Assembly: GCA_016906335.1 (NCBI GenBank)
Contig: JADEYG010000003.1
Location: 1,364,001-1,428,000 of the forward strand
Reading direction: 5' to 3'
Source: Novakomyces olei
Lineage: Eukaryota
DNA length: 64,000 nt
Program-made: the position numbers and the translations under genes
Part shown: piece after piece, positions 10,413 to 51,715 of the stretch
Numbering within the stretch: position 1 is the first letter of the stretch
Layout of the letters: every line of letters begins with the position of its first letter
The notes under the pieces: model-generated
What the model was told of the DNA's origin: nothing
Databases searched by the model: none
Seen by the model: only the letters and a program-made list of their open reading frames with translations

Positions 10413-11398
10413 TGTTGAATCTATAATTTCGAACGTGTTAATTTGAAACGTGTTGTATTCAATTTCGTTGGCCAACATAGTTCTATCTAGATCTATTTAT
10501 AGTCTTCTCAATGACAGTCACAATTACCAGGGTAAACTTCATTTTTTTTCTAAGTAATCAGCTGCTGCAAAAGCTTGATATACTTTCCTATACTCCCTCT
10601 CAAGCTTGTAATGATTCAATTCTAGAGTCCCCTTTCACCAGTTTTTGTCGCAAATGTATAAAAATCTTTTTACACAAAGGCTTTGTTAAAATATCCGCAA
10701 GCTGTTCTTTTGTAGATATATAATCAACAATTACTGTGCCGTTTTCCGTTAAATTGCGCAAAAACATATATCGTACATCAAGGTGCTTTAGTCGTCTCAT
10801 TGGGCTTGTTTTATGCGCAATACAAATTGCGCTTTTGTTGTCGGAGCAAACACGAATTGGAGACTCAATTTTTAAAAGCTCCTTGGCCAGGTTGTAGAGA
10901 CCTAATGTATGCACAATCGCCGTACAAGCACTTATATATTCAGCCTCGCATGTCGATAACGCAACAACTTTTTGTTTTGTTGACATCCAATGAATTAATG
11001 AATTACCCAGAAACAATGCCATTCCCGAAGTGGATTTCCTTTCGTCTCTATCACTTGCGTAGTCGGCATCGCAATAAACTTTCATGACTGGTTCAACCGA
11101 ATTGCTTTGATATTCCAGTCCCTTGTCTTTTGTATCCCTTAAATAAGCCGTGATACATTGAACCAGTTCGAGACATTCATCTGTAGGCTTTTCTTGATAT
11201 CTTGCTGCGTGGGATACAGCGAAGGATATATCTGGCCGAGTGCATCTGCTTATCCAAAGTAGCATGCCAATCCATTTGCGGTACTTTTCATTGTTTATAG
11301 GTTTCCCATTCAATTCCACGTAATTCCTTATGGGAATTCGTTTTTTAGGCAAGTCGTAGCAATCGAATTCTTTAATTATTTTTGTAATTGCTGCCTTC
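10413..11398 (-). mobile_element. Copia-2 3' part (end of RT, RNase H, PPT, 3' LTR), inverted
   Basis: ORF 10600-11352 matches the C-terminus of 24785-27724 (YCDADYA, STCEAEY, ADILTK); LTR 10413-10592; continues the copy broken at 7721 (shared TSD GAAGG). Confidence 0.93.
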
Positions 11399-27724: not shown

Positions 27725-29750
27725 GAGGGAGTATAGGAAAGTATATCAAGCTTGTGCAGCAGCTGATTACTTAGAAAAAAAAATGAAGTTTACCCTGGTA
27801 ATTGTGACTGTCATTGAGAAGACTATAAATAGATCTAGATAGAACTATGTTGGCCAACGAAATTGAATACAACACGTTTCAAATTAACACGTTCGAAATT
27901 ATAGATTCAACACTCTGTCTCCCATACAAACTTTTCCTTCTTCTTTAGCGTTCGTGTTATCGGCAACGCTATCTTTGCAAAATCTTTGATAAATCTCCTG
28001 TAGTAGTTGCAAAAACCAAGGAAGACTTGAACATCGTGAACAGATTTTGGTGGCTCCCATTGCAAAATAGGTTCCCTTTTATCTGCGCACATCGACACTC
28101 CATTCGTCGATAAATTGTAACCAAGAAATTCGACGCTTTCTCTATGAAATGCGCATTTCTTGTCCTTCGCATAAAGATCATTCTCTCTCAATCTTCTTAA
28201 TACTTCTTTCACATCGTTCACATGCGATTCTCTATCGCGTGAAAATACCAAAATATCGTCCAGGTAGATTAACACTTTGTAATCTAATAAATCTCGAAAC
28301 ACATCATTCATCAAGTTTTGGAACGTGGCGGGTGCATTGGTAAGACCAAAAGGCATGACCAAATATTCGAAGTGCCCGTACCTTGTTCGAAAGGCAGTCT
28401 TCCATTCATCCCCTTCTTTTATCCTGATAAGATTGTATGCTCCTCTGAGATCGATTTTTAACATAATCTTAACTCCAGTAAGTTTGTCAATAAGGTCATC
28501 GATACGTGGGATTGGGTACTTGTTCTTGATAGTAATCGAATTCAATCCACGATAATCGACACACAATCGATCCTCCATTTTTCTTTGGTACAAATAGAAC
28601 TGGCGCTCCTGCAGGCGACTTCGAACGACGTATAAATCCCTTAGCCAAGTTCTCTTCCAAATAATCCAATAAATACTTCTGTTCCTTTGGGTCGACACTG
28701 TAGACTGGCCCGAAAGGTATGACAGAATCCTTTGTTAGTTCGATCTCGTGATCGTAACTTCTGTGTGGAGGCAATGTTTCCACATTCTTTTCTTCAAACA
28801 CATCTTTGAAGTCAGTATACTCTGGTGGTATTGTATTTGTAACCATCTCTTCATCCGCGGTAATACTGCTCAACTGTCATGATCCCCGCCTCGCGTGAAC
28901 CACGACAGCGAACGACGCCTGAAGTCCTGTAGCGCCAAAGGCGATGACTTCAGGCTAGATAGATCTAAATAGCTCGCGCGAGGTAATGTTGGACATTACT
29001 CGCGCGAAGCGCGTAAGTGGCCTAGCTCGCGAGCAGGTTGGACCTGGCTCGCGCGAAGCAGGTCCACGTCCATGCCCGCGCGACGTAGGCACGTCGCGGC
29101 GCATGACAGTAGTAGTAGCGATCGCGCATCGCTACGAAGCTAGATAGATCGATCCATAGAGTTCATAGCTCGCCACCGCTTTCCCAATGCGGATGGTCTG
29201 GGACCATCGCATTGAGATCGTGGTGGGATGAGGCTTAGGCCGCGAAGTGGCTAAGCGAGCCGCTAAGCCTCATAGGATAGTCTACATAGTCGCCCATGGA
29301 GAGAACTCTCTCCACGGGCTTATAATCTCAAAGTTGCTACATAACCTTGTAGCAGGTAAGCTTTAGAGAAGCGCCGTCGCCTTTTCAAGGACAACGTCCT
29401 TTTCCTTTTCCTTAGTTCTTGCGCCGGGCGCAAGTCTACGTTCCCGTTTCTCGGTACTCGCTTCGCGCGGTACCCGATTGAACTTCCTTTGTCGAGCGGT
29501 CTCGCAAAGGACAGTCCGTGTTCGCCTGTAGCGACACGCGAGTTTACACCGCGGTGCTCCCCTCTAAGGGCCACCTTACACTATTATAAGCCCGTGAGCT
29601 CGTCTAAGCTACAGATTTACACGGCGTTGAAAGGTGTCACGCACGGAGGCGTACACAAATTTCGATTTACAAGTTTTATTTCGCACTAAGTTGTTGCGAC
29701 GAAGGGTGCTTTGCTACGGTTTAGCAGCACAAACGAATTATTGAATTACG

Positions 29751-30698
29751 ATGAGTCAAGAGGACTTGAACGCGTTTCTGCAGACGCTGCAGGCGCAGAT
29801 CGCGTCGCTCCAAGAGGAGCGCGTTAAGGACAAATCGGTTATTGAAGGCCTTCGCCAGGAAATGGGATCCCGGGGATCTCGACGATCAGGAGTCAGCGAA
29901 GGGCCAAGCATTTCGAAGCCGGATACATTCAGAGGTGATCGCAGATCGGTGGATACTTTCCTTGCACAGGTTCGCTTATACGTGAGACTCAAGCCACATG
30001 AGTTTCGCAACGACGAAGCGAAGGTCCTGTTTGCGGTATCTTATCTGCGCGGTGCCGCTTTTGCGTGGTTTGAACCCCACTTGCGCGACCACGATGAAAG
30101 CCTAATTACCAGTGACTTTGCCCTGTTTTGCGACGAGCTCTCCACGACATTTGGGAGCGTCGACCGCATTAGTCAGGCTGAGCGGGAGCTAGCATTGCTC
30201 AAACAGCGAGGATCTGTTGCTGAGTATACTTCGCGTTTTCAGCAGATCACTTCGCACTTGGATTTTAGCGATCACAGTTTACGCTACGAATATTATCAAG
30301 GATTGAAAGATCGAATTAAGGACGAATTATCTCGGTTGGAAAAATCGCGTACATTGTCAGACTTAATTGAGAAGTCTGTACGCGTGGACGAAAGGTTGTC
30401 GGATCGTTACTACGAAAGCGCTAGCCGTACGAACGCCAAGGGCGCTTCAGGCTATAGGGGCGCGACGATCGCGAACAAAGGATACACTCCCATGGAGGTA
30501 GATGCTACCAGTTACGAAAAGAAGAGCATTACCAGCGACGAACGCCAGCGTCGAAAGAAAGAGAACAGATGTTTTACGTGCGGACGCGAAGGTCATCGCG
30601 CACGTGATTGCAAACAGAAGCAACGCAATTATGAGCAACGCATCTCGGTGGTTATGGACAGTATCACGGAACCGGGAAAAGCGAGAGCCCAGGTCTAA
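29751..30698 (+). CDS. gag: GyB1 Gag
   Basis: FAVSYLRGAAFAW, TPMEVD, CFTCGREGHRARDC. Confidence 0.94.
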   Translation: MSQEDLNAFLQTLQAQIASLQEERVKDKSVIEGLRQEMGSRGSRRSGVSEGPSISKPDTFRGDRRSVDTFLAQVRLYVRLKPHEFRNDEAKVLFAVSYLRGAAFAWFEPHLRDHDESLITSDFALFCDELSTTFGSVDRISQAERELALLKQRGSVAEYTSRFQQITSHLDFSDHSLRYEYYQGLKDRIKDELSRLEKSRTLSDLIEKSVRVDERLSDRYYESASRTNAKGASGYRGATIANKGYTPMEVDATSYEKKSITSDERQRRKKENRCFTCGREGHRARDCKQKQRNYEQRISVVMDSITEPGKARAQV

Positions 30699-33600
30699 AA
30701 GAAAGGCCTGATCTGGGCGTTAATGACACGAGGCTTTCGGAGGTGATGTCAGTGGTACCCGAACCTGACAGAGGAATACATCTCACAGTTACTGCAAATT
30801 TGAGAACTAGCAAGGGCCAGCTGGACGCGAAGGCGCTGATCGACTCAGGCGCGACGTCGAATTTTATCAGCCAGAGCCTTGCTACGAGAAGCATAATCGA
30901 TATAACGAAGAAGGCGAAGATTGAGCCACTACGAGTTGTGGATGGAAGAGCGATTCGCACCGGAGGTGTTCGCTTCCAGACTGAAAACATGGAGGTCACC
31001 ATAGGCGAACATCGCGAGACTATGATGTTTAACGTGATACCGCTCTCTGGACACGACGTTATTTTAGGAAAGCCATGGCTCGACAAACATGAGCCAAGGA
31101 TTGCATGGAGACGTGCAAAAGTCGAATTCGAGTCTTCCTATTGCTTAGCAAACTGCCTCAAGAAGCCCGAGGCACAAGACGAACCATCGCAAATCAGTGC
31201 GACGGAATTTGCTAAGCTATCGCGAGGCAACGACTCGGGATTGCTGTGCGTATACGCGACCGACGCTAAAAGCGAGGACAAAAACGTCGCTATACCTCCC
31301 GAGTATGCAGACTTTCGCGATCTTTTTGAGAAAAGAAATGCAGACATTCTACCACAGCATCAGGCGTGGGATCACGCAATACCGTTGACAGAAGGCGCGA
31401 AGCCGCCGTTCGGGCCTATATATCCTCTGGCCGAACGCGAGCTACAAACACTACGCGACTACATTAAAGACAATCTAGCGAAGGGATTCATTAGGCCGTC
31501 TTCATCGCCCGCGGGGGCTCCAATTCTTTTTGTGAAAAAGAAGGACGGTTCGCTGAGACTGTGCGTAGATTATCGCGGGCTAAACGCGGTAACTGTCAAA
31601 AATCGCTATGCGCTGCCGCTCATATCGGAGCTATTGGATCGCATTCGTCAGTCGACGATATTTACGCGATTAGATCTCCGTGGCGCGTATAATCTTGTCC
31701 GTATACGCGAAGGCGACGAGTGGAAAACCGCCTTCCGTACGCGTTATGGACATTACGAATATCAGGTTATGCCTTTCGGGCTCACGAACGCCCCGGCATC
31801 TTTCCAAGCTCTTGCGAACGACACATTACGCGATTGTCTGGATCGCTTTGCTGTTGTATACTTGGACGACATCTTGATCTATTCGGACACCGAGGAGGAG
31901 CATGTGACGCATGTTCGCGAAGTACTGAAACGACTTCGCAAAGCAAACTTATTTGTGAAACTAGAGAAATGCGAGTTCCACACAGACACGACAGAGTTCC
32001 TAGGCTTTGTTGTCTCTACGAAAGGAGTGTCTATGGAGAAAGCGAAAGTTGATTCTATTGAGACATGGCCTGAACCCAAGAACGCGAAAGACGTTATGTC
32101 GTTCTTAGGCCTATCAAATTACTATCGCAGATTTATTGCAAACTACAGCAAAATTACCATCCCTCTCACCCGCTTACTGAAGAAGGATGCGCAGTTTAAT
32201 TTCTCCAAGGAGTGCATTGACTCTTTCCAAACTCTGAAGAACGCTTTTCTGGGTGCGCCGATCCTTGCGCATTTCGACCCGCAGAAGCCAAGTTATTTGG
32301 AAACCGACGCATCGGACTTCGCGATCGGTGGGATTCTCTCGCAGAAAGACAACAGCGACGAAATGAGACCCATCGCGTTCTACTCGCGAAAAATGACTAG
32401 CGCGGAAGTAAACTATGATATCTACGACAAAGAGCTGTTAGCTATTGTCGCATGTCTTCGCGAATGGCGAGTTTACCTGGAGAGTCCGTTACATCGCACT
32501 ACAATTTATACGGATCACCGCAATCTCATGTACTTTCTTACAGCAAGAGTACTTAGCCGTAGACAGATGCGATGGTCGCAATTGATCGCTTCCTATGATT
32601 TCGTTATTGAATACCGTGCTGGAAAGCTAAATCACAAAGCGGATGCCTTGTCTAGGCGAAGCGATTATGTCGGCGATAAGGAACAGGAGAAACCAGAGCG
32701 AACTATGGCACTATTGGACAGATCGCACTTCCTGTTCGCGACCGTAGAAGATACAGGCATTGATGATCAGATTAAACAATGTTACGGCAAAGACAAGACT
32801 TGCAAGGTTGTCATGGAGGACCTCGGCAAGCAGCCAGTGTCGGAACATCTGCGAAACTACAGTATAAACGAAAAGGGTCTTCTAACGTTTTCGGGTTTGC
32901 TATACATCCCAAACGACAATCGTTTGCGATTAGCTATACTACAGACATGCCATGATTCGCATGTCGCGGGTCACCCTGGCCAGGCCAAAACGTTGGACTT
33001 AGTCATGCGAAACTACTATTGGCCACGCATGCGAAAAGAGATATTTAGCTACGTCGAGTCGTGCGATACTTGTGCGCGAAACAAGCCTTCGCGACATGCA
33101 CCGTATGGACTACTACACCCACTGAGAGTACCAGCGAGACCCTGGGAAAGTATCTCAATGGACTTCATTGTGAAATTACCGGAGTCGCGCGATGCGATTA
33201 CACAAAAAACCTACGACTCCATATGGGTAATCACCTGTCGATTTACGAAAATCGGAATATTTATACCAATACGCGAATCTATTAAGGCTACTGAGCTAGC
33301 TTTGATTTACGCCCATCGCGTATTTGCCAACTATGGCCTACCAGACGAAATAGTCTCTGACAGGGGTTCGGTATTTGTATCGCAGTTTACACGACACTTG
33401 CTTTCGCAATGCGATATACAGCAGAAGTTGTCTACCGCGTACCACCCACAGAGCGACGGCCAAACAGAGAGGCTTAACCAGATCTTAGAGCAATATCTGA
33501 GGATCTACAGCAACTATCAGCAAAGCAATTGGGTCAATTTGTTACCTTTTGCTCAATTCGCGTACAACAATTCAGAGCAGTCGTCTACAAAGACAACACC

Positions 33601-34225
33601 GTTTTACGCTTTTTACGGCTACAACCCGAAATGTCGCTTTACGATTTCATCTTCGCGACAATGCCCATCCGCGGATGAACGTATCGAATACCTACGGAAT
33701 CTACATCGCTTATTGAAAGTCGAAATCGAAAAGTCTCTCAGCGACCAGGCGCGCTTTGCAAATGAGCATCGCGTCGACAAAAGTTTTGCTATTGGCGATC
33801 AAGTCTGGCTAGTGCGAAAAAATATTAGCACTACGCGGCCATGCGATAAGCTGGATGCCAAGAAGCTGGGACCGTTTAGGATTATCGCACGCGTTGGTTT
33901 GCGTGCATATCGCTTGGAACTATCGAAGGCAATGCGTATACATCCTGTCTTCCACGCTTCATTGCTAGAGCGACATAACGCAGTGTCGCAGATCGCGCGA
34001 GAACAGATCGCGCCACCACCTCCAGTTATATTGGATGCTAACCCGGAATGGGAAGTCGAGCAAGTTCTAGACTCGCGCATCCGACGCAAGCAACTTCAAT
34101 ATTATGTGCATTGGAAAGGCTACGACGCCTCCGACCGCACGTGGGAGCCTGCGAAACATTTACACAACTGCATGGATTTGGTAAACGAATTCCACCGTGC
34201 ACACCCGAACAAACCTGGTTCTTAA
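30674..34225 (+). CDS. pol: GyB1 Pol (PR-RT-RNaseH-IN-chromodomain), -1 frame to gag
   Basis: Uninterrupted ORF of more than 1160 aa: LIDSGA, YLDD, TDASD, HHCC, SDRG, QTERLN, WEVEQV...YYVHWKGY...TWEP. Slippery G GGA AAA at 30674-30680 followed by stem GCCCAGGTC/GATCTGGGC. Confidence 0.94.
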   Translation, partial: GKSESPGLKERPDLGVNDTRLSEVMSVVPEPDRGIHLTVTANLRTSKGQLDAKALIDSGATSNFISQSLATRSIIDITKKAKIEPLRVVDGRAIRTGGVRFQTENMEVTIGEHRETMMFNVIPLSGHDVILGKPWLDKHEPRIAWRRAKVEFESSYCLANCLKKPEAQDEPSQISATEFAKLSRGNDSGLLCVYATDAKSEDKNVAIPPEYADFRDLFEKRNADILPQHQAWDHAIPLTEGAKPPFGPIYPLAERELQTLRDYIKDNLAKGFIRPSSSPAGAPILFVKKKDGSLRLCVDYRGLNAVTVKNRYALPLISELLDRIRQSTIFTRLDLRGAYNLVRIREGDEWKTAFRTRYGHYEYQVMPFGLTNAPASFQALANDTLRDCLDRFAVVYLDDILIYSDTEEEHVTHVREVLKRLRKANLFVKLEKCEFHTDTTEFLGFVVSTKGVSMEKAKVDSIETWPEPKNAKDVMSFLGLSNYYRRFIANYSKITIPLTRLLKKDAQFNFSKECIDSFQTLKNAFLGAPILAHFDPQKPSYLETDASDFAIGGILSQKDNSDEMRPIAFYSRKMTSAEVNYDIYDKELLAIVACLREWRVYLESPLHRTTIYTDHRNLMYFLTARVLSRRQMRWSQLIASYDFVIEYRAGKLNHKADALSRRSDYVGDKEQEKPERTMALLDRSHFLFATVEDTGIDDQIKQCYGKDKTCKVVMEDLGKQPVSEHLRNYSINEKGLLTFSGLLYIPNDNRLRLAILQTCHDSHVAGHPGQAKTLDLVMRNYYWPRMRKEIFSYVESCDTCARNKPSRHAPYGLLHPLRVPARPWESISMDFIVKLPESRDAITQKTYDSIWVITCRFTKIGIFIPIRESIKATELALIYAHRVFANYGLPDEIVSDRGSVFVSQFTRHLLSQCDIQQKLSTAYHPQSDGQTERLNQILEQYLRIYSNYQQSNWVNLLPFAQFAYNNSEQSSTKTTPFYAFYGYNPKCRFTISSSRQCPSADERIEYLRNLHRLLKVEIEKSLSDQARFANEHRVDKSFAIGDQVWLVRKNISTTRPCDKLDAKKLGPFRIIARVGLRAYRLELSKAMRIHPVFHASLLERHNAVSQIAREQIAPPPPVILDANPEWEVEQVLDSRIRRKQLQYYVHWKGYDASDRTWEPAKHLHNCMDLVNEFHRAHPNKPGS

Positions 34226-34452
34226 ATGGGAATGCTAAGCGAGCTCCCTATTCGGGCGACGACCTTCAACTTTCGTCACCCACGCGAAACTAAGACTCAA
34301 CTCTTAAAGTGATTTATTGATTTATTGATTATACCGCGATTATTATTGTTTAAATTATTACGAGAAAATTATACAAAAACATATTCAATTACTTGTCGAA
34401 CAAATAATATGGGACAACGCAAGGAGGAATGGCTGTTGAGTCACGCACACAA

Positions 34453-34953
34453 TTACGGACGAGCGGCACGGAGCGAAAGAATCTCGCGCTCCAACGCACG
34501 GTTGCGGCGCTCGAGGCGAGCGATAGTCGCATCGCGCTGGGCCAGCGCACTCGAAACCGAACCGACGATCGAATTTGTTGACGGAGGACCGTCATCGGCA
34601 ATTACATGCACCTCGAATGGTGCCTGACGTCTTTCCTCCTGCGCTCGCTGTCGCGCGCGACGTCTTTCGCGGCGACGCTGCAGCTCCTCGCGCTCTCTCA
34701 CACGCTGTTCTTCACGCGCGGCAACAAGGCGCTCGTTCTCCTCATTGTCATGAAGAAAACGGCCTCCTTCGCAACGGGTGCGACGTGCCGCGCAGACCAT
34801 ACAGCGACGCACAAACGGTGCAGTGCCGAGAACGAAGCGGCACGGCAAAGAGTTTGCCACGCAATACTCGCAGGGCACGATAGCATCTCTGACATGAGCA
34901 AGCGACATGTTGTTGTTGATCCGGAACGCAGAGCGAAAATTCTTGTTTTGCAT
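34453..34953 (-). CDS. GyB1 antisense ORF: Zn(II)2Cys6 (GAL4-type) cluster plus Arg/Glu-rich coiled coil
   Basis: CEYC-x6-C-x12-CMVC-x6-C, then EENERL...RRRERRRARQR and a C-terminal heptad-like ALAQRDATIARLERRNRALERE; open in both GyB copies. Confidence 0.75.
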   Translation of the reverse strand: MQNKNFRSAFRINNNMSLAHVRDAIVPCEYCVANSLPCRFVLGTAPFVRRCMVCAARRTRCEGGRFLHDNEENERLVAAREEQRVREREELQRRRERRRARQRAQEERRQAPFEVHVIADDGPPSTNSIVGSVSSALAQRDATIARLERRNRALEREILSLRAARP

Positions 34954-35986
34954 CCGCAAATTACTTTATATTACTTAGATAGTTTTATTGCCGAAAGCGC
35001 ACTTATATAGCAGTCTAGTAGCTAACGTGGTTTTCATAGGCGCGGAGACCTCGCCCTAGAAAGGGGGATAGTGTCATGATCCCCGCCTCGCGTGAACCAC
35101 GACAGCGAACGACGCCTGAAGTCCTGTAGCGCCAAAGGCGATGACTTCAGGCTAGATAGATCTAAATAGCTCGCGCGAGGTAATGTTGGACATTACTCGC
35201 GCGAAGCGCGTAAGTGGCCTAGCTCGCGAGCAGGTTGGACCTGGCTCGCGCGAAGCAGGTCCACGTCCATGCCCGCGCGACGTAGGCACGTCGCGGCGCA
35301 TGACAGTAGTAGTAGCGATCGCGCATCGCTACGAAGCTAGATAGATCGATCCATAGAGTTCATAGCTCGCCACCGCTTTCCCAATGCGGATGGTCTGGGA
35401 CCATCGCATTGAGATCGTGGTGGGATGAGGCTTAGGCCGCGAAGTGGCTAAGCGAGCCGCTAAGCCTCATAGGATAGTCTACATAGTCGCCCATGGAGAG
35501 AACTCTCTCCACGGGCTTATAATCTCAAAGTTGCTACATAACCTTGTAGCAGGTAAGCTTTAGAGAAGCGCCGTCGCCTTTTCAAGGACAACGTCCTTTT
35601 CCTTTTCCTTAGTTCTTGCGCCGGGCGCAAGTCTACGTTCCCGTTTCTCGGTACTCGCTTCGCGCGGTACCCGATTGAACTTCCTTTGTCGAGCGGTCTC
35701 GCAAAGGACAGTCCGTGTTCGCCTGTAGCGACACGCGAGTTTACACCGCGGTGCTCCCCTCTAAGGGCCACCTTACATCAACTGTATATCCGAAAATTCG
35801 TCTTTCACCGTAGGAGTACTTGCATTGCGAGGCTTTATAGTTCCATTAATCCAATCAATATCTGGATTGTGCTTCTGGAACCATGGTAACCCAAGGATGG
35901 CGTCGTTCTTGCCAATATTAGTGACAAGGAATGATTCTTCAGATACGAAACCTTGTACATCGACATGTAGATCCTTCGTCTTGATG

Positions 35987-36356
35987 TGTCATGGTTTGCA
36001 CCTGACATGGTGCAAGTACAGTGCATCTTGCACAGAACTTGCACCGAGTAAAGTAGTTTAGCTTACTTGTTGAGGCTTAGCCTCTTAGTTCCTTTTCGAG
36101 ATAGTTTTTGAGTTATTTTAGTTAGTGAGATTAGTGAGTACGTAGCCCGTAAAGGATATAAAGAGGCTTCTTTCCTTTATAACTTTACGGTTAATCAACT
36201 TTGTTGGAAGAGTGAACTTCCATCTGGAGTCCCCTGCTGTAGCCAGCCGCGTACGACTGGCAGAAGCTTATAGTAATAAAAGCGTTTATTACTACGAGCA
36301 GTTAAGAGTCTACGTCCGAATCTACCTAAGCAAGCGTGCTGGGTAGCAACATAACA
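35987..36356 (+). repeat. Solo LTR of an unidentified family in the GyD protease
   Basis: TGTCA...ATAACA, 370 bp; TSD TGATG at 35982-35986 and 36357-36361; TATA-like GATATAAAG near 36154. Confidence 0.88.
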
Positions 36357-38209
36357 TGATGGGTACTCCACCTCTTGCAATATGCTTTCCATTTGCAACT
36401 CTGACAAATATAGGTGTTTTCAGACGTTCAGTCTCGGCCTTAAGTGCCAAAACAGTTCTTGGATTAATAAAATTAGTGTCTGACCCACTGTATAGTAGCA
36501 CTTTAATCTTCTTGTCGTTTACAACACACGACATCTCAAACCTCCCATAAGGTTTATCGTCTGGTGGCTTTTTCTGTGCCATCACCCCTAGAGATACCAC
36601 CGTCGGGTCTAGGCTTGGCCTTTTAAATTCTTCGAATCCTCTGCTCTCACATCTCTCGCAGGATATGGTGCAGGACAATACTTCGAAACATGTCCTTCTT
36701 CATTGCAACGATAACATTTGACCTTAAGCTAACATGCTTCGGTTTAGCGTTCCTGTTAGCACGGACGCTATCTTTCAAACTTGCTCTTGTCTCCAAAGAG
36801 TCAACTTCCATAGGTGTATAACCAGCCGAGCCCACTCCACGGTACTCCGGTATTCTCTTCACCGTTCTGTCTTTAGCCTTGCTTCGTTCAAACAAGCTAG
36901 TATCAATCTTAACGCATTCTTTAATGAGCTTCTCAAGCTCTTCTGGCAGATCGCTACGAGCCAATTCGTCTTTGATATCCTCTTTAAGTCCTTCGTAGAA
37001 CTGCGCAACGAGCGCATCGTTGTTCCACGTAAGCCACGACTTAACACGCTCAAACTCTGTGGCATAATGCGACACGGATCCCTTCTGTCTCAATAAGCGG
37101 ATCTGTCTTTCAGCCGTTCTGCGGACGTCCCTGTCCCCGAACATTTTCTCCAAGGTTTGGCAAAAATTGTTAAAATCGTCAAGTATGGCGCCATTGTCGC
37201 TACGGACATGTGGCTCGAACCATTTAAAAGCAACTCCTCTGAGGTAGGAGGCTGCAAACATAACACGCTGCCGATCCGTTCTGTATCGTTCCGGTTGTCC
37301 CGCTATGACCATCTGGACATGGGTCAGAAAATCCCCCGTTTGCGAACGATCGCCCGAAAAGTACGGCGGAGGAGCAAGCTTAGGTGTAAGGTGGCCCTTA
37401 GAGGGGAGCACCGCGGTATAAACTCGCGTGTCGCTACAGGCGAACACGGACTGTCCTTTGCGAGACCGCTCGACAAAGGAAGTTCAATCGGTTACCGCGC
37501 GAAGCGAGTACCGAGAAACGGGAACGTAGACTTGCGCCCGGCGCAAGAACTAAGGAAAAGGAAAAGGACGTTGTCCTTGAAAAGGCGACGGCGCTTCTCT
37601 AAAGCTTACCTGCTACAAGGCTATGTAGCAACTTTGAGATTATAAGCCCGTGGAGAGAGTTCTCTCCATGGGCGACTATGTAGACTATCCTATGAGGCTT
37701 AGCGGCTCGCTTAGCCACTTCGCGGCCTAAGCCTCATCCCACCACGATCTCAATGCGATGGTCCCAGACCATCCGCATTGGGAAAGCGGTGGCGAGCTAT
37801 GAACTCTATGGATCGATCTATCTAGCTTCGTAGCGATGCGCGATCGCTACTACTACTGTCATGCGCCGCGACGTGCCTACGTCGCGCGGGCATGGACGTG
37901 GACCTGCTTCGCGCGAGCCAGGTCCAACCTGCTCGCGAGCTAGGCCACTTACGCGCTTCGCGCGAGTAATGTCCAACATTACCTCGCGCGAGCTATTTAG
38001 ATCTATCTAGCCTGAAGTCATCGCCTTTGGCGCTACAGGACTTCAGGCGTCGTTCGCTGTCGTGGTTCACGCGAGGCGGGGATCATGACACTATCCCCCC
38101 TTTCTAGGGCGAGGTCTCCGCGCCTATGAAAACCACGTTAGCTACTAGACTGCTATATAAGTGCGCTTTCGGCAATAAAACTATCTAAGTAATATAAAGT
38201 AATTCGCGG

Positions 38210-38710
38210 ATGCAAAACAAGAATTTTCGCTCTGCGTTCCGGATCAACAACAACATGTCGCTTGTTCATGTCAGAGATGCTATCGTGCCCTGCGAGTATT
38301 GCGTGGCAAACTCTTTGCCGTGCCGCTTCGTTCTCGGCACTGCACCGTTTGTGCGTCGCTGTATGGTCTGCGCGGCACGTCGCACCCGTTGCGAAGGAGG
38401 CCGTTTTCTTCATGACAATGAGGAGAACGAGCGCCTTGTTGCCGCGCGTGAAGAACAGCGTGTGAGAGAGCGCGAGGAGCTGCAGCGTCGCCGCGAAAGA
38501 CGTCGCGCGCGACAGCGAGCGCAGGAGGAAAGACGTCAGGCACCATTCGAGGTGCATGTAATTGCCGATGACGGTCCTCCGTCAACAAATTCGATCGTCG
38601 GTTCGGTTTCGAGTGCGCTGGCCCAGCGCGATGCGACTATCGCTCGCCTCGAGCGCCGCAACCGTGCGTTGGAGCGCGAGATTCTTTCGCTCCGTGCCGC
38701 TCGTCCGTAA
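38210..38710 (+). CDS. GyB2 antisense Zn(II)2Cys6/coiled-coil ORF
   Basis: Same protein as 34453-34953 with one substitution; TATATAAG at ~38154-38161 upstream; alternative start CAACAACAAC-ATG at 38255. Confidence 0.75.
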   Translation: MQNKNFRSAFRINNNMSLVHVRDAIVPCEYCVANSLPCRFVLGTAPFVRRCMVCAARRTRCEGGRFLHDNEENERLVAAREEQRVREREELQRRRERRRARQRAQEERRQAPFEVHVIADDGPPSTNSIVGSVSSALAQRDATIARLERRNRALEREILSLRAARP

Positions 38711-38937
38711 TTGTGTGCGTGACTCAACAGCCATTCCTCCTTGCGTTGTCCCATATTATTTGTTCGACAAGTAATTGAATATGTTTTTGTATAATTTTCT
38801 CGTAATAATTTAAACAATAATAATCGCGGTATAATCAATAAATCAATAAATCACTTTAAGAGTTGAGTCTTAGTTTCGCGTGGGTGACGAAAGTTGAAGG
38901 TCGTCGCCCGAATAGGGAGCTCGCTTAGCATTCCCAT

Positions 38938-41900
38938 TTAAGAACCAGGTTTGTTCGGGTGTGCACGGTGGAATTCGTTTACCAAATCCATGCAGTTGTG
39001 TAAATGTTTCGCAGGCTCCCACGTGCGGTCGGAGGCGTCGTAGCCTTTCCAATGCACATAATATTGAAGTTGCTTGCGTCGGATGCGCGAGTCTAGAACT
39101 TGCTCGACTTCCCATTCCGGGTTAGCATCCAATATAACTGGCGGTGGTGGCGCGATCTGTTCTCGCGCGATCTGCGACACTGCGTTATGTCGCTCTAGCA
39201 ATGAAGCGTGGAAGACAGGATGTATACGCATTGCCTTCGGTAGTTCCAAGCGATATGCACGCAAACCAACGCGTGCGATAATCCTAAACGGTCCCAGCTT
39301 CTTGGCATCCAGCTTATCGCATGGCCGCGTAGTGCTAATATTTTTTCGCACTAGCCAGACTTGATCGCCAATAGCAAAACTTTTGTCGACGCGATGCTCA
39401 TTTGCAAAGCGCGCCTGGTCGCTGAGAGACTTTTCGATTTCGACTTTCAATAAGCGATGTAGATTCCGTAGGTATTCGATACGTTCATCCGCGGATGGGC
39501 ATTGTCGCGAAGATGAAATCGTAAAGCGACATTTCGGGTTGTAGCCGTAAAAAGCGTAAAACGGTGTTGTCTTTGTAGACGACTGCTCTGAATTGTTGTA
39601 CGCGAATTGAGCAAAAGGTAACAAATTGACCCAATTGCTTTGCTGATAGTTGCTGTAGATCCTCAGATATTGCTCTAAGATCTGGTTAAGCCTCTCTGTT
39701 TGGCCGTCGCTCTGTGGGTGGTACGCGGTAGACAACTTCTGCTGTATATCGCATTGCGAAAGCAAGTGTCGTGTAAACTGCGATACAAATACCGAACCCC
39801 TGTCAGAGACTATTTCGTCTGGTAGGCCATAGTTGGCAAATACGCGATGGGCGTAAATCAAAGCTAGCTCAGTAGCCTTAATAGATTCGCGTATTGGTAT
39901 AAATATTCCGATTTTCGTAAATCGACAGGTGATTACCCATATGGAGTCGTAGGTTTTTTGTGTAATCGCATCGCGCGACTCCGGTAATTTCACAATGAAG
40001 TCCATTGAGATACTTTCCCAGGGTCTCGCTGGTACTCTCAGTGGGTGTAGTAGTCCATACGGTGCATGTCGCGAAGGCTTGTTTCGCGCACAAGTATCGC
40101 ACGACTCGACGTAACTAAATATCTCTTTTCGCATGCGTGGCCAATAGTAGTTTCGCATGACTAAGTCCAACGTTTTGGCCTGGCCAGGGTGACCCGCGAC
40201 ATGCGAATCATGGCATGTCTGTAGTATAGCTAATCGCAAACGATTGTCGTTTGGGATGTATAGCAAACCCGAAAACGTTAGAAGACCCTTTTCGTTTATA
40301 CTGTAGTTTCGCAGATGTTCCGACACTGGCTGCTTGCCGAGGTCCTCCATGACAACCTTGCAAGTCTTGTCTTTACCGTAACATTGTTTAATCTGATCAT
40401 CAATGCCTGTATCTTCTGCGGTCGCGAACAGGAAGTGCGATCTGTCCAATAGTGCCATAGTTCGCTCTGGTTTCTCCTGTTCCTTATCGCCGACATAATC
40501 GCTTCGCCTAGACAAGGCATCCGCTTTGTGATTTAGCTTTCCAGCACGGTATTCAATAACGAAATCATAGGAAGCGATCAATTGCGACCATCGCATCTGT
40601 CTACGGCTAAGTACTCTTGCTGTAAGAAAGTACATGAGATTGCGGTGATCCGTATAAATTGTAGTGCGATGTAACGGACTCTCCAGGTAAACTCGCCATT
40701 CGCGAAGACATGCGACAATAGCTAACAGCTCTTTGTCGTAGATATCATAGTTTACTTCCGCGCTAGTCATTTTTCGCGAGTAGAACGCGATGGGTCTCAT
40801 TTCGTCGCTGTTGTCTTTCTGCGAGAGAATCCCACCGATCGCGAAGTCCGATGCGTCGGTTTCCAAATAACTTGGCTTCTGCGGGTCGAAATGCGCAAGG
40901 ATCGGCGCACCCAGAAAAGCGTTCTTCAGAGTTTGGAAAGAGTCAATGCACTCCTTGGAGAAATTAAACTGCGCATCCTTCTTCAGTAAGCGGGTGAGAG
41001 GGATGGTAATTTTGCTGTAGTTTGCAATAAATCTGCGATAGTAATTTGATAGGCCTAAGAACGACATAACGTCTTTCGCGTTCTTGGGTTCAGGCCATGT
41101 CTCAATAGAATCAACTTTCGCTTTCTCCATAGACACTCCTTTCGTAGAGACAACAAAGCCTAGGAACTCTGTCGTGTCTGTGTGGAACTCGCATTTCTCT
41201 AGTTTCACAAATAAGTTTGCTTTGCGAAGTCGTTTCAGTACTTCGCGAACATGCGTCACATGCTCCTCCTCGGTGTCCGAATAGATCAAGATGTCGTCCA
41301 AGTATACAACAGCAAAGCGATCCAGACAATCGCGTAATGTGTCGTTCGCAAGAGCTTGGAAAGATGCCGGGGCGTTCGTGAGCCCGAAAGGCATAACCTG
41401 ATATTCGTAATGTCCATAACGCGTACGGAAGGCGGTTTTCCACTCGTCGCCTTCGCGTATACGGACAAGATTATACGCGCCACGGAGATCTAATCGCGTA
41501 AATATCGTCGACTGACGAATGCGATCCAATAGCTCCGATATGAGCGGCAGCGCATAGCGATTTTTGACAGTTACCGCGTTTAGCCCGCGATAATCTACGC
41601 ACAGTCTCAGCGAACCGTCCTTCTTTTTCACAAAAAGAATTGGAGCCCCCGCGGGCGATGAAGACGGCCTAATGAATCCCTTCGCTAGAATGTCTTTAAT
41701 GTAGTCGCGTAGTGTTTGTAGCTCGCGTTCGGCCAGAGGATATATAGGCCCGAACGGCGGCTTCGCGCCTTCTGTCAACGGTATTGCGTGATCCCACGCC
41801 TGATGCTGTGGTAGAATGTCTGCATTTCTTTTCTCAAAAAGATCGCGAAAGTCTGCATACTCGGGAGGTATAGCGACGTTTTTGTCCTCGCTTTTAGCGT

Positions 41901-42489
41901 CGGTCGCGTATACGCACAGCAATCCCGAGTCGTTGCCTCGCGATAGCTTAGCAAATTCCGTCGCACTGATTTGCGATGGTTCGTCTTGTGCCTCGGGCTT
42001 CTTGAGGCAGTTTGCTAAGCAATAGGAAGACTCGAATTCGACTTTTGCACGTCTCCATGCAATCCTTGGCTCATGTTTGTCGAGCCATGGCTTTCCTAAA
42101 ATAACGTCGTGTCCAGAGAGCGGTATCACGTTAAACATCATAGTCTCGCGATGTTCGCCTATGGTGACCTCCATGTTTTCAGTCTGGAAGCGAACACCTC
42201 CGGTGCGAATCGCTCTTCCATCCACAACTCGTAGTGGCTCAATCTTCGCCTTCTTCGTTATATCGATTATGCTTCTCGTAGCAAGGCTCTGGCTGATAAA
42301 ATTCGACGTCGCGCCTGAGTCGATCAGCGCCTTCGCGTCCAGCTGGCCCTTGCTAGTTCTCAAATTTGCAGTAACTGTGAGATGTATTCCTCTGTCAGGT
42401 TCGGGTACCACTGACATCACCTCCGAAAGCCTCGTGTCATTAACGCCCAGATCAGGCCTTTCTTTTAGACCTGGGCTCTCGCTTTTCCC
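38938..42489 (-). CDS. pol: GyB2 Pol
   Basis: Intact, nearly identical to GyB1 Pol. Confidence 0.94.
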   Translation of the reverse strand, partial: GKSESPGLKERPDLGVNDTRLSEVMSVVPEPDRGIHLTVTANLRTSKGQLDAKALIDSGATSNFISQSLATRSIIDITKKAKIEPLRVVDGRAIRTGGVRFQTENMEVTIGEHRETMMFNVIPLSGHDVILGKPWLDKHEPRIAWRRAKVEFESSYCLANCLKKPEAQDEPSQISATEFAKLSRGNDSGLLCVYATDAKSEDKNVAIPPEYADFRDLFEKRNADILPQHQAWDHAIPLTEGAKPPFGPIYPLAERELQTLRDYIKDILAKGFIRPSSSPAGAPILFVKKKDGSLRLCVDYRGLNAVTVKNRYALPLISELLDRIRQSTIFTRLDLRGAYNLVRIREGDEWKTAFRTRYGHYEYQVMPFGLTNAPASFQALANDTLRDCLDRFAVVYLDDILIYSDTEEEHVTHVREVLKRLRKANLFVKLEKCEFHTDTTEFLGFVVSTKGVSMEKAKVDSIETWPEPKNAKDVMSFLGLSNYYRRFIANYSKITIPLTRLLKKDAQFNFSKECIDSFQTLKNAFLGAPILAHFDPQKPSYLETDASDFAIGGILSQKDNSDEMRPIAFYSRKMTSAEVNYDIYDKELLAIVACLREWRVYLESPLHRTTIYTDHRNLMYFLTARVLSRRQMRWSQLIASYDFVIEYRAGKLNHKADALSRRSDYVGDKEQEKPERTMALLDRSHFLFATAEDTGIDDQIKQCYGKDKTCKVVMEDLGKQPVSEHLRNYSINEKGLLTFSGLLYIPNDNRLRLAILQTCHDSHVAGHPGQAKTLDLVMRNYYWPRMRKEIFSYVESCDTCARNKPSRHAPYGLLHPLRVPARPWESISMDFIVKLPESRDAITQKTYDSIWVITCRFTKIGIFIPIRESIKATELALIYAHRVFANYGLPDEIVSDRGSVFVSQFTRHLLSQCDIQQKLSTAYHPQSDGQTERLNQILEQYLRIYSNYQQSNWVNLLPFAQFAYNNSEQSSTKTTPFYAFYGYNPKCRFTISSSRQCPSADERIEYLRNLHRLLKVEIEKSLSDQARFANEHRVDKSFAIGDQVWLVRKNISTTRPCDKLDAKKLGPFRIIARVGLRAYRLELPKAMRIHPVFHASLLERHNAVSQIAREQIAPPPPVILDANPEWEVEQVLDSRIRRKQLQYYVHWKGYDASDRTWEPAKHLHNCMDLVNEFHRAHPNKPGS

Positions 42490-43412
42490 GGTTCCGTGAT
42501 ACTGTCCATAACCACCGAGATGCGTTGCTCATAATTGCGTTGCTTCTGTTTGCAATCACGTGCGCGATGACCTTCGCGTCCGCACGTAAAACATCTGTTC
42601 TCTTTCTTTCGACGCTGGCGTTCGTCGCTGGTAATGCTCTTCTTTTCGTAACTGGTAGCATCTACCTCCATGGGAGTGTATCCCTTGTTCGCGATCGTCG
42701 CGCCCCTATAGCCTGAAGCGCCCTTGGCGTTCGTACGGCTAGCGCTTTCGTAGTAACGATCCGACAACCTTTCGTCCACGCGTACAGACTTCTCAATTAA
42801 GTCTGACAATGTACGCGATTTTTCCAACCGAGATAATTCGTCCTTAATTCGATCTTTCAATCCTTGATAATATTCGTAGCGTAAACTGTGATCGCTAAAA
42901 TCCAAGTGCGAAGTGATCTGCTGAAAACGCGAAGTATACTCAGCAACAGATCCTCGCTGTTTGAGCAATGCTAGCTCCCGCTCAGCCTGACTAATGCGGT
43001 CGACGCTCCCAAATGTCGTGGAGAGCTCGTCGCAAAACAGGGCAAAGTCACTGGTAATTAGGCTTTCATCGTGGTCGCGCAAGTGGGGTTCAAACCACGC
43101 AAAAGCGGCACCGCGCAGATAAGATACCGCAAACAGGACCTTCGCTTCGTCGTTGCGAAACTCATGTGGCTTGAGTCTCACGTATAAGCGAACCTGTGCA
43201 AGGAAAGTATCCACCGATCTGCGATCGCCTCTGAATGTATCCGGCTTCGAAATGCTTGGCCCTTCGCTGACTCCTGATCGTCGAGATCCCCGGGATCCCA
43301 TTTCCTGGCGAAGGCCTTCAATAACCGATTTGTCCTTAACGCGCTCCTCTTGGAGCGACGCGATCTGCGCCTGCAGCGTCTGCAGAAACGCGTTCAAGTC
43401 CTCTTGACTCAT
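42465..43412 (-). CDS. gag: GyB2 Gag
   Basis: Same translation as 29751-30698. Confidence 0.94.
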   Translation of the reverse strand: MSQEDLNAFLQTLQAQIASLQEERVKDKSVIEGLRQEMGSRGSRRSGVSEGPSISKPDTFRGDRRSVDTFLAQVRLYVRLKPHEFRNDEAKVLFAVSYLRGAAFAWFEPHLRDHDESLITSDFALFCDELSTTFGSVDRISQAERELALLKQRGSVAEYTSRFQQITSHLDFSDHSLRYEYYQGLKDRIKDELSRLEKSRTLSDLIEKSVRVDERLSDRYYESASRTNAKGASGYRGATIANKGYTPMEVDATSYEKKSITSDERQRRKKENRCFTCGREGHRARDCKQKQRNYEQRISVVMDSITEPGKARAQV

Positions 43413-44481
43413 CGTAATTCAATAATTCGTTTGTGCTGCTAAACCGTAGCAAAGCACCCTTCGTCGCAACAACTTAGTGCGAAATAAAACTTGTAAATCG
43501 AAATCTGTGTACGCCTCCGTGCGTGACACCTTTCAACGCCGTGTAAATCTGTAGCTTAGACGAGCTCACGGGCTTATAATAGTGTAAGGTGGCCCTTAGA
43601 GGGGAGCACCGCGGTATAAACTCGCGTGTCGCTACAGGCGAACACGGACTGTCCTTTGCGAGACCGCTCGACAAAGGAAGTTCAATCGGTTACCGCGCGA
43701 AGCGAGTACCGAGAAACGGGAACGTAGACTTGCGCCCGGCGCAAGAACTAAGGAAAAGGAAAAGGACGTTGTCCTTGAAAAGGCGACGGCGCTTCTCTAA
43801 AGCTTACCTGCTACAAGGCTATGTAGCAACTTTGAGATTATAAGCCCGTGGAGAGAGTTCTCTCCATGGGCGACTATGTAGACTATCCTATGAGGCTTAG
43901 CGGCTCGCTTAGCCACTTCGCGGCCTAAGCCTCATCCCACCACGATCTCAATGCGATGGTCCCAGACCATCCGCATTGGGAAAGCGGTGGCGAGCTATGA
44001 ACTCTATGGATCGATCTATCTAGCTTCGTAGCGATGCGCGATCGCTACTACTACTGTCATGCGCCGCGACGTGCCTACGTCGCGCGGGCATGGACGTGGA
44101 CCTGCTTCGCGCGAGCCAGGTCCAACCTGCTCGCGAGCTAGGCCACTTACGCGCTTCGCGCGAGTAATGTCCAACATTACCTCGCGCGAGCTATTTAGAT
44201 CTATCTAGCCTGAAGTCATCGCCTTTGGCGCTACAGGACTTCAGGCGTCGTTCGCTGTCGTGGTTCACGCGAGGCGGGGATCATGACATTAGGCTCCTTG
44301 GTGCGCGTGTTGGACACGATTCCATTAGCGGCGCGAAGTCGCTCACTAAGGCTCTGGTTTTCCGTTTCGAGTCTCTCGAGGCGAGCCGTCGTTTGCTCAA
44401 GAAACGATTGTATATGCTGATAATCCATCGTAAAAAGCTCGAAGAAAAAGTCACAGTCCCCGAATCGTGGACGTGTAATAC

Positions 44482-45462: not shown

Positions 45463-46494
45463 TTACTCCCCCTCTTCAAGGAGAGCCAATCCTGCTTTAG
45501 CGGCCAGTAAATGCTCTTCACTGCCGTTACCCCGTAACACCCATCTGGTGATTTCCTTCAAGCTGTTCTGATGATCTTCCGCGACTTGGAATCTCATGGC
45601 TAAGCTAGACTGTTTCGCCCAATTCGCTTCCCAGACGGTAAGCCTGCTCATGACCTTTGGAGTCTCCACCAGCGTATAACCCGTAATTGCGGCATCTGTC
45701 AAGGATATAACAGCATGTGGTGTTCCTCCAGGTAGCACAAAAACAGTTCCTGGCTTGACCTCGCCAATTCTGAGGCCTTTCAAACTCTTCAGGGCACTCG
45801 TTAACACAAAGTCACCAGGCTTTTGATGGTACTCCTCCGATGCTTTCAGCTCTTCGGGACCGTTATTCCACGCAAGTAGCAATTTCCATCCTAGCACTCC
45901 AACGATGACCTGTCGCGTGCACACAGAATCAATATGCACGTCCGTAATAGTTCCTGCGGGAGTAACTGTTCCCAACCAAGATCGTCCAACGATTCTCTTT
46001 CGTAGCTGACTCAATTTGTGCGGGCCACAAGACTTCAAGCCACTTGCACTTTCATGAGCCACATTGTAAACAGCGTATTTTGTTTTCAATTTGCCCATCC
46101 ACGATGCGACAACCTGAGATATGCGTACCTCGTCGTCATGAACACGAACTCTTGTATCCATAAAGTGTGCCGTTTTCGTCTCCATTACATCGTCAATCAC
46201 ATTTGGCCAATCGGGAGTTGTTGAGAAAGACTCCGAAATATCATCCTCAATTGGTTGCAAAATGTCGTATTCGTTGCGCGATAAATAAGCCAAGGTCTGG
46301 CGCGCAACGATGTTCTCCGTATTAGCGTTTTTCCACGCTTCCGCCCATTCTCGTAGCTTCTCCGGGTGCGAGGCTATATGTCGCTGTAGATCAAAGCTTC
46401 TCGTAAAGTGTCGCATGCAAACGTCGCACTCAAACTCTCCGCGATCTCGTTCGCCGCGCTTGCGCTTTTCCCCTCCTTCAACAGTTGCGGTCAT
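45463..46494 (-). CDS. GyC ORF3: C2H2 zinc finger plus JmjC-like dioxygenase
   Basis: EKRKR; FECDVCMRHFTRSFDLQRHIASH; GTITDVHID...GWKLLLAW...VKPG...GTPHAV; clear homolog of 5459-6514. The stop codon abuts the 3' LTR. Confidence 0.85.
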   Translation of the reverse strand: MTATVEGGEKRKRGERDRGEFECDVCMRHFTRSFDLQRHIASHPEKLREWAEAWKNANTENIVARQTLAYLSRNEYDILQPIEDDISESFSTTPDWPNVIDDVMETKTAHFMDTRVRVHDDEVRISQVVASWMGKLKTKYAVYNVAHESASGLKSCGPHKLSQLRKRIVGRSWLGTVTPAGTITDVHIDSVCTRQVIVGVLGWKLLLAWNNGPEELKASEEYHQKPGDFVLTSALKSLKGLRIGEVKPGTVFVLPGGTPHAVISLTDAAITGYTLVETPKVMSRLTVWEANWAKQSSLAMRFQVAEDHQNSLKEITRWVLRGNGSEEHLLAAKAGLALLEEGE

Positions 46495-50339: not shown

Positions 50340-51464
50340 CTAACTAAAATTCCGGAATTGGAAATAATCCGCAATCGAACGGATTATCTCCGATAAAAAC
50401 GGAATTATGTCATATTGATATGACACTATCCTCCTCTTCCAAAAACGTAGACACTGCCGCCTGTGCCTTTTGTACCAGCCTTGTCTCCTGCTGTCTTCTC
50501 CTGCCCAATCACGATATGCCATCAAGCAACGTTCGTGATCTTCCTTTACCTCGTCTCGAATAGTTGGGAACTGTGTACTAGCCCACGACGATTCCCACTT
50601 TGCCACTCGGTATAAAGCCTGGTCTTCGCTAGCAATATAGTAACCCATCAAGACTGCTTTCTCAAAAGACATCACCGCATGTGGTGTCCCAGACCTTAAT
50701 CGAAAAATAACTCCCGGCTCTAGTACTCCAATCTTTAACCCTTCGAGGCTGCGAAGAGCTTCAGGTAATATAAAGTCTCCTGGCCTGCGATGATAGGGCT
50801 CCAACTTCTGTAAATTGGCCTCTGAATTGGCCCACGTAAAGACCAGCTTTCTCCCAAGAATTCCCACAATGACGGTTTCGCACAGAACCGGATCCACGTG
50901 AACGTCCGTGATTGTGCCCGACGGTGTGGCAGTCCCGTTCCATCCAAGTTCATTCAAATAACTTTCCTTCAACAATCCTTGCGCGCGAAGGCCCACTGAC
51001 GATAAACCGTATTCGCTGATCGGCCTCAAATTGTAGGCTGCGTATCTCGTAGTCCCCGGCTGGACGAATGATGCGAGGACCTGGGCGATTCGTATTTCGT
51101 CATCATGCACGCGAACCCGTATGTCCATAAACAAAGCTGTCTCATCCTCCAAAAGGTCCTCGAAGACATGTGCCCATGTTGGCTTGCAATCGAAAACAAA
51201 CCTTTCGCTATGGGGCTTGAGCTTTTCGAAATCAACCGATGCGAGCAGAGTAAAAATGTCTCTCGCCAACTGTTTGTTCGGTCGGTCTTCCTCCTTAAAC
51301 CACTCTTCGGCCCAGCCAACCAGATCAGGGTCGTGCATCTCCATGTGACGGTCGCGGTCGTGCTTTCGGGTGTACTGTCGAGTGCACACAACACATTGGA
51401 ACTTACCGCTGTCCAGCGCGTATCGCTTGCGCTGCCTCCCCTCTTCAAGAACGTTATTGTTCAT
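50340..51464 (-). CDS. GyA2 ORF3: C2H2 plus JmjC-like
   Basis: Same as the GyA1 ORF3 except a 1-bp loss in an A-run near 50468 that changes only the C-terminal tail; catalytic motif intact. Confidence 0.83.
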   Translation of the reverse strand: MNNNVLEEGRQRKRYALDSGKFQCVVCTRQYTRKHDRDRHMEMHDPDLVGWAEEWFKEEDRPNKQLARDIFTLLASVDFEKLKPHSERFVFDCKPTWAHVFEDLLEDETALFMDIRVRVHDDEIRIAQVLASFVQPGTTRYAAYNLRPISEYGLSSVGLRAQGLLKESYLNELGWNGTATPSGTITDVHVDPVLCETVIVGILGRKLVFTWANSEANLQKLEPYHRRPGDFILPEALRSLEGLKIGVLEPGVIFRLRSGTPHAVMSFEKAVLMGYYIASEDQALYRVAKWESSWASTQFPTIRDEVKEDHERCLMAYRDWAGEDSRRQGWYKRHRRQCLRFWKRRIVSYQYDIIPFLSEIIRSIADYFQFRNFS

Positions 51465-51715
51465 TGTCCGTAAATTTGCGGATTTGATGTCTAAGTTGCG
51501 GATTTGGTGGGGGTAGCCCACATATATATAGACTTCGTTATACTTGACTTCGACAAGTAATAATTCTTTGACGTTCCATAAAAATAATAATGATAATAAT
51601 AGTATATACTTAATTATTTTATTAAGTAATAGTCGTAGCATAGAATAACAATAAAAGCAATAATATAGATATATCTGATCCGTATCTTAGCGGATTATGT
51701 GTTGATATTGCGGAT

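Follow-up and report, generated by a model that had tools for sequence, protein, structure and literature searches.

A chromodomain Ty3/Gypsy retrotransposon, GyB, carries between pol and its 3' LTR an antisense cassette whose open reading frame of 166 codons (ORF166) is likely, as judged from its sequence, to be a real or recently real protein. The cassette is part of the transposing unit and has been carried through two independent transpositions. We give an even chance to the reading that ORF166 is an accessory gene, borne by the element in antisense, whose product would be a dimeric, zinc-binding regulator that probably binds nucleic acids.

GyB is recently active and carries the cassette within its transposing unit

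The window, by which we mean the whole stretch of 64,000 nucleotides that was analysed, is a nest of LTR retrotransposons (Table 1). GyB is a chromovirus; its gag has a CCHC knuckle, and its pol contains protease, RT, RNase H, integrase, SH3 and chromodomain as identified with Pfam. The two copies, A and B, differ by 17 substitutions and one 1-nt indel over ~6,903 nt (99.75% identity), and the LTR pair is identical inside each copy, which indicates that both insertions are very young. Three of the substitutions that distinguish A from B are found in both LTRs of a copy, at matching positions. A segmental duplication as the origin of the two copies is excluded by their differing target duplications and by these copy-specific LTR sites; each copy integrated separately and very recently, from template RNAs that differed slightly. 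It follows from the copy-specific 5-bp target duplications, the identical LTR pairs and the shared LTR sites that the cassette passed through reverse transcription at least two times. GyB is thus a recently active element.

The copies lie tail to tail, 1.6 kb apart (35778-37384). An older - strand Gypsy element was apparently host to both insertions, with its gag and protease located between the copies (36322-37312, -) and an RT fragment to the left of copy A (27907-28578, -), an arrangement that fits chromodomain-guided insertion into repeats. The CpG observed/expected ratio is 1.3-1.8 in every part of 28875-35777, with no CpG depletion, and we see in this excess no sign of methylation-driven decay. 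The sequence directly after the 5' LTR (29581-29600, CTATTATAAGCCCGTGAGC) starts differently from the usual TGG of a tRNA primer-binding site.

Table 1. Features of GyB, of the antisense cassette and of neighbouring elements, in positions of the window.
Feature	Position	Strand	Details
GyB copy A, complete	28875..35777	+	LTR-gag-pol-antisense cassette-PPT-LTR; repeats, TG...CA ends
Copy A target duplication TCAAC, 5 bp	28870-28874 and 35778-35782		flanks the element
Copy A 5' LTR	28875..29580	+	706 nt; 706/706 identity with 3' LTR
Copy A pol	30746..34225	+	1159 aa; Pfam; best outside relative 57% identical
AT-rich spacer, convergent stops of pol and ORF166	34226..34452		227 nt, 37% GC
Two AATAAA	34321-34326 and 34313-34318	-	in the spacer, within an 8-nt tandem repeat
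ORF166, copy A	34453..34953	-	166 aa; 33 Arg, 1 Lys, 6 Cys; 59% GC
Leucine-zipper-like C-terminal helix, residues 130-164	34462..34566	-	AlphaFold2, heptad shuffle test
Arg/Glu-rich long helix, about residues 70-109	34627..34746	-	includes RRRERRRARQR; AlphaFold2 and sequence
Six-cysteine module	34771..34872	-	C28-x2-C31-x6-C38-x12-C51-x2-C54-x6-C61
Upstream region of ORF166	34954..35071	-	118 nt
Second TATA box, TATAAA	34965-34970	-	upstream of ORF166
TATA-type box TATATAAG	35002-35009	-	upstream of ORF166
Polypurine tract AGAAAGGGGGA	35058-35068		at the + strand end of the ORF166 upstream region
Copy A 3' LTR	35072..35777	+	
GyB copy B	37385..44288	-	target duplication CCTAA; independent insertion, tail to tail with copy A
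ORF166, copy B	38210..38710	+	166 aa; A19V relative to copy A
Sense C2H2+cupin ORF after pol, other Gypsy family	5282-6514	+	
Sense C2H2+cupin ORF after pol, other Gypsy family	45463-46494	-	
Sense C2H2+cupin ORF after pol, other Gypsy family	63467-64000	+	runs off the window
Copy of the 5282-6514 ORF	50340-51641	-	

ORF166 converges on pol and is flanked by correctly oriented signals

ORF166 occupies the 0.85 kb slot between the pol stop (34225) and the start of the 3' LTR (35072), antisense to gag-pol. Its convergence on pol over an AT-rich spacer had been described in an earlier note on this DNA and is borne out here (227 nt, 37% GC), as is the box that the note had placed upstream of the frame: TATATAAG is present on the - strand and is accompanied by a second box, TATAAA, the two lying 12-56 nt 5' of ORF166. 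The ATG at 34953 has a G at -3 and is preceded by an in-frame stop five codons upstream. On the other side, both AATAAA hexamers are located about 127-140 nt beyond the ORF166 stop on the - strand, and none occurs on the + strand within 34201-35300. TATA boxes and AATAAA signals are both oriented correctly for a - strand ORF166. Two of the differences between the copies fall in the upstream region, namely the 1-nt indel at about 35062, within the polypurine tract AGAAAGGGGGA, and a substitution at 34958, 5 nt 5' of the ATG.

The GC content of ORF166 is 59% versus 48% for pol, and its Arg codons (CGC 14, CGT 12, AGA 4) contrast with the AGA favoured in the TE genes of the window. This foreign GC content and Arg codon choice fit an acquired gene. 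Synonymous codon use was not discriminating, at -0.07 bits per codon for ORF166 versus -0.003 to 0.16 for the TE genes. A nested element as the origin of the cassette was rejected, given that its flanks hold no terminal repeats or target duplication; the sole tandem repeat is the 8-nt unit in the spacer, and an Rfam scan returned no family.

ORF166 is likely to encode a protein with a six-cysteine module and a zipper

The order of elements that the earlier note had read from the frame, with the cysteine spacing followed by an Arg/Glu-rich helix (about residues 70-109) and then a heptad tail (130-164), is present in full. The predicted protein has exactly six cysteines, every one of them within C-x2-C-x6-C-x12-C-x2-C-x6-C. 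AlphaFold2 in single-sequence mode gave confident helices for residues 70-109 and 130-164 (block-mean pLDDT about 79-97) and a poor prediction for the cysteine module (block-mean pLDDT 49-61 in the full protein; mean 69.8 for the 47-aa piece alone). The first helix is charged and has no clear heptad core. For the second, the zipper register is a = L137, I144, N151, I158 and d = R140, L147, L154, L161. A non-helical stretch (110-129) splits the basic patch (about 92-108) from the zipper, and a bZIP identity was rejected on the grounds that basic region and zipper are discontinuous and that Pfam contains no bZIP family matching at E <= 10. The sequence supports a gene-like cassette that would encode the six-cysteine module, the helices and the zipper.

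The length of the frame provides modest evidence against chance. When the pol-to-LTR interval was shuffled by dinucleotides, 10 of 2000 replicates contained an ORF of 166 aa or more, as did 21 of 2000 when its GC-rich core was shuffled. A caveat is that the interval is rich in GC and that stops are scarce in each of its six frames (1-4 stops per frame); further ORFs of 65-134 aa overlap ORF166. The internal patterns were far rarer among randomised sequences. In the six-frame translation of the window, the Cys6 pattern occurs only at the two ORF166 copies, and it was recovered in none of 1,000,000 random placements of six cysteines, in none of 300 shuffled windows and once when the ORF DNA was shuffled 20,000 times; the two halves of the module, read from the sequence, show no DNA repeat. 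Heptad a/d positions hold 8 of the 9 L/I/V/M residues among residues 130-164, a distribution matched in one of 20,000 residue shuffles. Two independent patterns in one frame indicate that ORF166 is, or very recently was, protein-coding, and we regard it as somewhat probable that a protein is made from it.

The earlier note had also drawn attention to the frame being open in both copies. This is true but uninformative, as the copies are 99.75% identical: about one difference is expected in 501 nt at that identity, and one was seen (34898, A19V), which is non-synonymous.

The cysteine module matches the Zn(II)2Cys6 spacing and departs from the family in other respects

Zn(II)2Cys6 domains follow the consensus C-x2-C-x6-C-x(5-12)-C-x2-C-x(6-8)-C. 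ORF166 agrees with it, its 12-residue middle loop being at the upper limit, so that the spacing on which the earlier note had based a GAL4-type assignment is exact. The family assignment itself did not follow from the profile searches. Against Pfam Zn_clus (PF00172), which has a gathering cut-off of 21 bits, the whole protein scored 10.6 bits (E 0.64), its residues 27-40 falling on profile positions 18-32 of 39, in the second half of the model. The 47-aa module scored 15.6 bits (E 0.017) in two stretches, again below the cut-off of 21, and Zn_clus was the sole Pfam family listed for it at E <= 10. Each half of the module scanned alone matched 0 Pfam families, and zinc-ribbon and other zinc-finger families of Pfam gave no match at E <= 10 for either the protein or the module.

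GAL4-type domains have DNA-contacting Lys/Arg residues between Cys2 and Cys3, as seen in the GAL4 structure and the PROSITE pattern. In ORF166, the Cys2-Cys3 stretch VANSLP contains no basic residue, and the basic ones are found between Cys5 and Cys6 (AARRTR); compared with the GAL4-type pattern, the module looks swapped or simply different. A phmmer search of PDB with the whole protein yielded 3 unrelated matches (E 0.28-2.8), and a PDB sequence search with the cysteine module yielded 0 matches at E <= 10. Foldseek against PDB returned 0 matches for the whole-protein and 47-aa models, in which the cysteine module is of low confidence.

Binding to CGG triplets at the element's own LTR, as suggested previously, finds no support in the composition of the LTR: CGG/CCG triplets are depleted (19 versus 30.4 +/- 3.8 in shuffles), and paired CGG sites show no enrichment over shuffles. 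The repeated motif of the GyB LTR is TCGCGCGA-like. Within U3 (28960-29110, and likewise in the other three LTRs), a TCGCGCGA-type palindrome is present in 3-4 copies, which, as read from the sequence, flank longer imperfect palindromes around TTGGAC. With the profile score and the lack of basic residues between Cys2 and Cys3 against it, we consider membership of ORF166 in the Zn(II)2Cys6 family unlikely.

ORF166 has no detectable relative in the collections searched

A word-indexed search among proteins of near length yielded 1207 candidates that share words with ORF166, none of them at E <= 0.01, and longer proteins searched with residues 20-70 gave 3 candidates, none at E <= 10. An exhaustive HMMER search of 1.84 billion representative proteins returned 1 match, P0001, a repetitive Cys/Asp-rich protein in which 29 residues were matched five times; we judged it spurious. 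By exact look-up, the ORF166 sequence was absent from a 15-billion collection, in which 0 of 6 window proteins were present. In the ESM Atlas, top scores reached 0.78 for the whole protein and 0.85 for residues 20-110, below the 0.9 level. The leads obtained there were all Ascomycota 'hypothetical' clusters, and the rank-3 cluster carries DUF3716 on 28% of its members. A Zymoseptoria DNA transposon encodes proteins in which DUF3716 occurs (PMC8232023). DUF3716 itself had no Pfam match at E <= 10 in the ORF166 protein or module, and we treat the link as a lead only. Among the collections searched, the ORF166 protein has no detectable relative.

The best outside relatives of GyB pol are 57% identical, an identity low enough that the host genome seems to be missing from the searched collections. 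Named relatives include Microbotryum and Absidia (45-47% identity) as well as an alga (39%) and a fish (40%). A fungal host of GyB is plausible on this comparison. The cysteine motif had been cited in support of such a host; the motif alone is insufficient, and the pol relatives are fungal but also include the alga and the fish.

The slot between pol and the 3' LTR holds accessory genes in neighbouring and distant elements

Three other Gypsy families of the window, likewise chromodomain elements, carry sense C2H2+cupin ORFs after pol, which are mutually homologous (42% identity over 318 aa, 26% over 183 aa). These ORFs contain a C2H2 finger, with Zif268-type matches in PDB down to E 1.9e-05, and have weak cupin and KDM2A-like matches, every Pfam score being below cut-off. 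The sense ORF seems to be an accessory gene that has been conserved and whose product has a JmjC-like fold. It shares slot and genome with ORF166 but is encoded in sense, is 343-410 aa long and is conserved between families. The pol of GyB is the outlier, with 41-53% identity to the other families compared with 54-69% among themselves. The suggestion that ORF166 is an alternative to the JmjC gene stands as far as the position in the slot is concerned but receives no support from similarity, as tblastn of the sense ORF against the GyB slot gave a best E of 0.039 over 34 aa, which is not significant. In this genome, judging from these frames, the slot is a hot spot for accessory genes, with conservation backing only the sense ORF. 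Two further ORFs in the Copia-rich part of the window, 10600-11265 (-) and 11480-12361 (-), of 221 and 293 aa, had no Pfam match at E <= 0.001.

Antisense extra ORFs in the pol-to-3'LTR slot (aORF-3R) are described for maize Grande, rice RIRE2, Silene Retand, Phaseolus PvRetro13 and fungal Boty (PMC7264820, PMC11963269, PMC8365987). The aORF-3R products are usually without database relatives, and nuclear localisation or predicted DNA binding is described for some of them (PMC7264820, PMC11963269); antisense RNA is considered as a mode of regulation for elements of this type (PMC7264820). Boty of Botrytis and Sclerotinia, whose antisense gene is brtn, is a fungal chromodomain element (PMC4227169); GyB, too, has a chromodomain. 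ORF166 resembles the aORF-3R group (Boty brtn, Grande gene23, RIRE2, Retand, PvRetro13) in slot, antisense orientation and Ty3/Gypsy carrier, the likening to brtn and gene23 being one of position and orientation. Differences are apparent as well: Retand ORFs have a TRP28 domain in a slot of 2.9-6.6 kb, whereas the 0.85 kb slot of GyB holds a Cys6 module and zipper, and aORF-3R families are conserved across copies and species, whereas ORF166 is represented by 2 of 2 copies in the window that are 99.75% identical. Antisense ORFs in this slot are thus already known, and the version with six cysteines, Arg helix and zipper is new.

Likeness to the GAL4-type factors is found in the exact six-cysteine spacing, its N-terminal position and the downstream helices and zipper. 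Unlike these factors, ORF166 has its zipper ~70 residues past the cluster, lacks a middle-homology or activation region within its 166 aa and belongs to a retrotransposon; the PDB and HMMER searches gave no match to a solved or catalogued member. A search of the available literature for a mobile element with its own zinc-cluster factor turned up none; what it brought up were genome papers and one preprint, on host zinc-cluster factors at Ty5 LTRs. The antisense ORFs of retrotransposons are likened to HTLV-1 HBZ by authors in the field (PMC11963269). Like the predicted product of ORF166, HBZ is a small basic zipper protein encoded antisense near the 3' LTR; the two are not homologous. HBZ is a bZIP protein with its basic region contiguous with the zipper, in contrast to the separate Cys6 module, basic helix and zipper of ORF166, and it is transcribed from the 3' LTR, whereas the TATA boxes of ORF166 lie in the internal region of the element.

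Discussion

Under the explanation that we prefer, an element-borne gene for a regulator, the six-cysteine module would most likely chelate zinc, either as a binuclear Cys6 cluster or as a Cys4 site with two spare cysteines. The charged Arg/Glu helix with its Arg-rich patch could serve nuclear localisation and nucleic-acid binding, and the short C-terminal zipper, which has an Asn at a core 'a' position, would form a parallel dimer. Transcription of ORF166 would be driven by its own promoter against the genomic RNA of the element. The protein would then enter the nucleus, dimerise and bind nucleic acid, and in doing so may tune the expression of the element or its chromatin environment. Each of these steps is inferred, from expression and zinc binding to dimerisation, binding of nucleic acid and the regulatory role. 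By analogy, ORF166 would be of the same kind as the antisense ORFs of Grande, RIRE2, Retand and Boty and functionally analogous to HBZ.

Other readings of the frame have to be weighed against this one. A true GAL4-type Zn(II)2Cys6 domain with its dimerisation helix, acquired from the 5' end of the host gene for a zinc-cluster factor, would explain the exact spacing, the GC content and codon use foreign to the element and the finding that Zn_clus is the only family for the module (E 0.017, 15.6 bits). GAL4-type factors also have the cluster near the N-terminus, followed by helices, an arrangement like that of ORF166, and the nearest named pol relatives are fungal. The protein may in that case be a truncated factor, devoid of a regulatory or activation domain, that either competes at CGG-type sites or serves as an element-specific activator or repressor. 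We nevertheless regard such a capture as unlikely: the score stays under 21 bits with the first half of the module aligned to the second half of the model, VANSLP lacks a basic residue, the homology searches contain no zinc-cluster protein and PDB no match to the module, CGG/CCG triplets are depleted in the LTR, and the helix after the cluster is charged, has no clear heptad core and leaves the zipper 70 residues further on. Its fullest form, in which GyB has captured the end of a host Zn(II)2Cys6 regulator that binds DNA and dimerises, expresses it antisense in the style of HBZ and uses it as a miniature transcription factor to steer its LTR or host genes, we consider a good deal less than likely, indeed rather improbable. 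More doubtful still is a real protein with an ordinary Cys4 zinc site (C28-x2-C31 ... C51-x2-C54; ribbon or treble-clef), two spare cysteines and RNA-binding activity. C-x2-C-x19-C-x2-C is a common single-zinc spacing, the protein contains 33 Arg and 1 Lys, and RRRERRRARQR resembles arginine-rich RNA-binding motifs, so that the Arg-rich helix may bind, for example, the genomic RNA of the element, as a Rev- or nucleocapsid-like helper. Around the second half of the module, AlphaFold2 shows short strands in place of two helices, at low confidence and in models too uncertain to decide the matter. With a Cys4 site, it would be coincidence that all six cysteines follow an exact 2-6 / 2-6 symmetry, and no zinc-ribbon or other zinc-finger family of Pfam was matched at E <= 10.

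Alternatively, the GC-rich block may yield no protein and act as an antisense promoter, a regulatory RNA or a double-stranded RNA trigger against the 3' end of the element, in which case ORF and motifs would have arisen by accident or be what is left of a captured, decaying fragment. ORF166 being an orphan in every search agrees with this, as do the six stop-poor frames with their overlapping ORFs of 65-134 aa and the comparison of copies A and B, in which the one difference within the ORF, non-synonymous, gives no sign of selection; an antisense RNA would moreover be complementary throughout to the genomic RNA in its 3' part. We think a non-coding block improbable, as the Cys6 pattern (1/20,000), the heptads (1/20,000) and the ORF length (0.5-1%) are jointly hard to obtain by accident in one frame, and Rfam is without a match. 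For a decayed relic, an open frame with every cysteine intact would be unexpected, though the copies are too young for that comparison to weigh much.

Antisense accessory genes of LTR retrotransposons are known and are without an established function. Should ORF166 be unexpressed or unconserved, it would be merely an orphan ORF in a young repeat. If its module is a true zinc cluster, a mobile element would be borrowing from the largest fungal transcription-factor family. A compact ORF166 with recognisable modules, in an active element, would offer a tractable case for the role of such genes.
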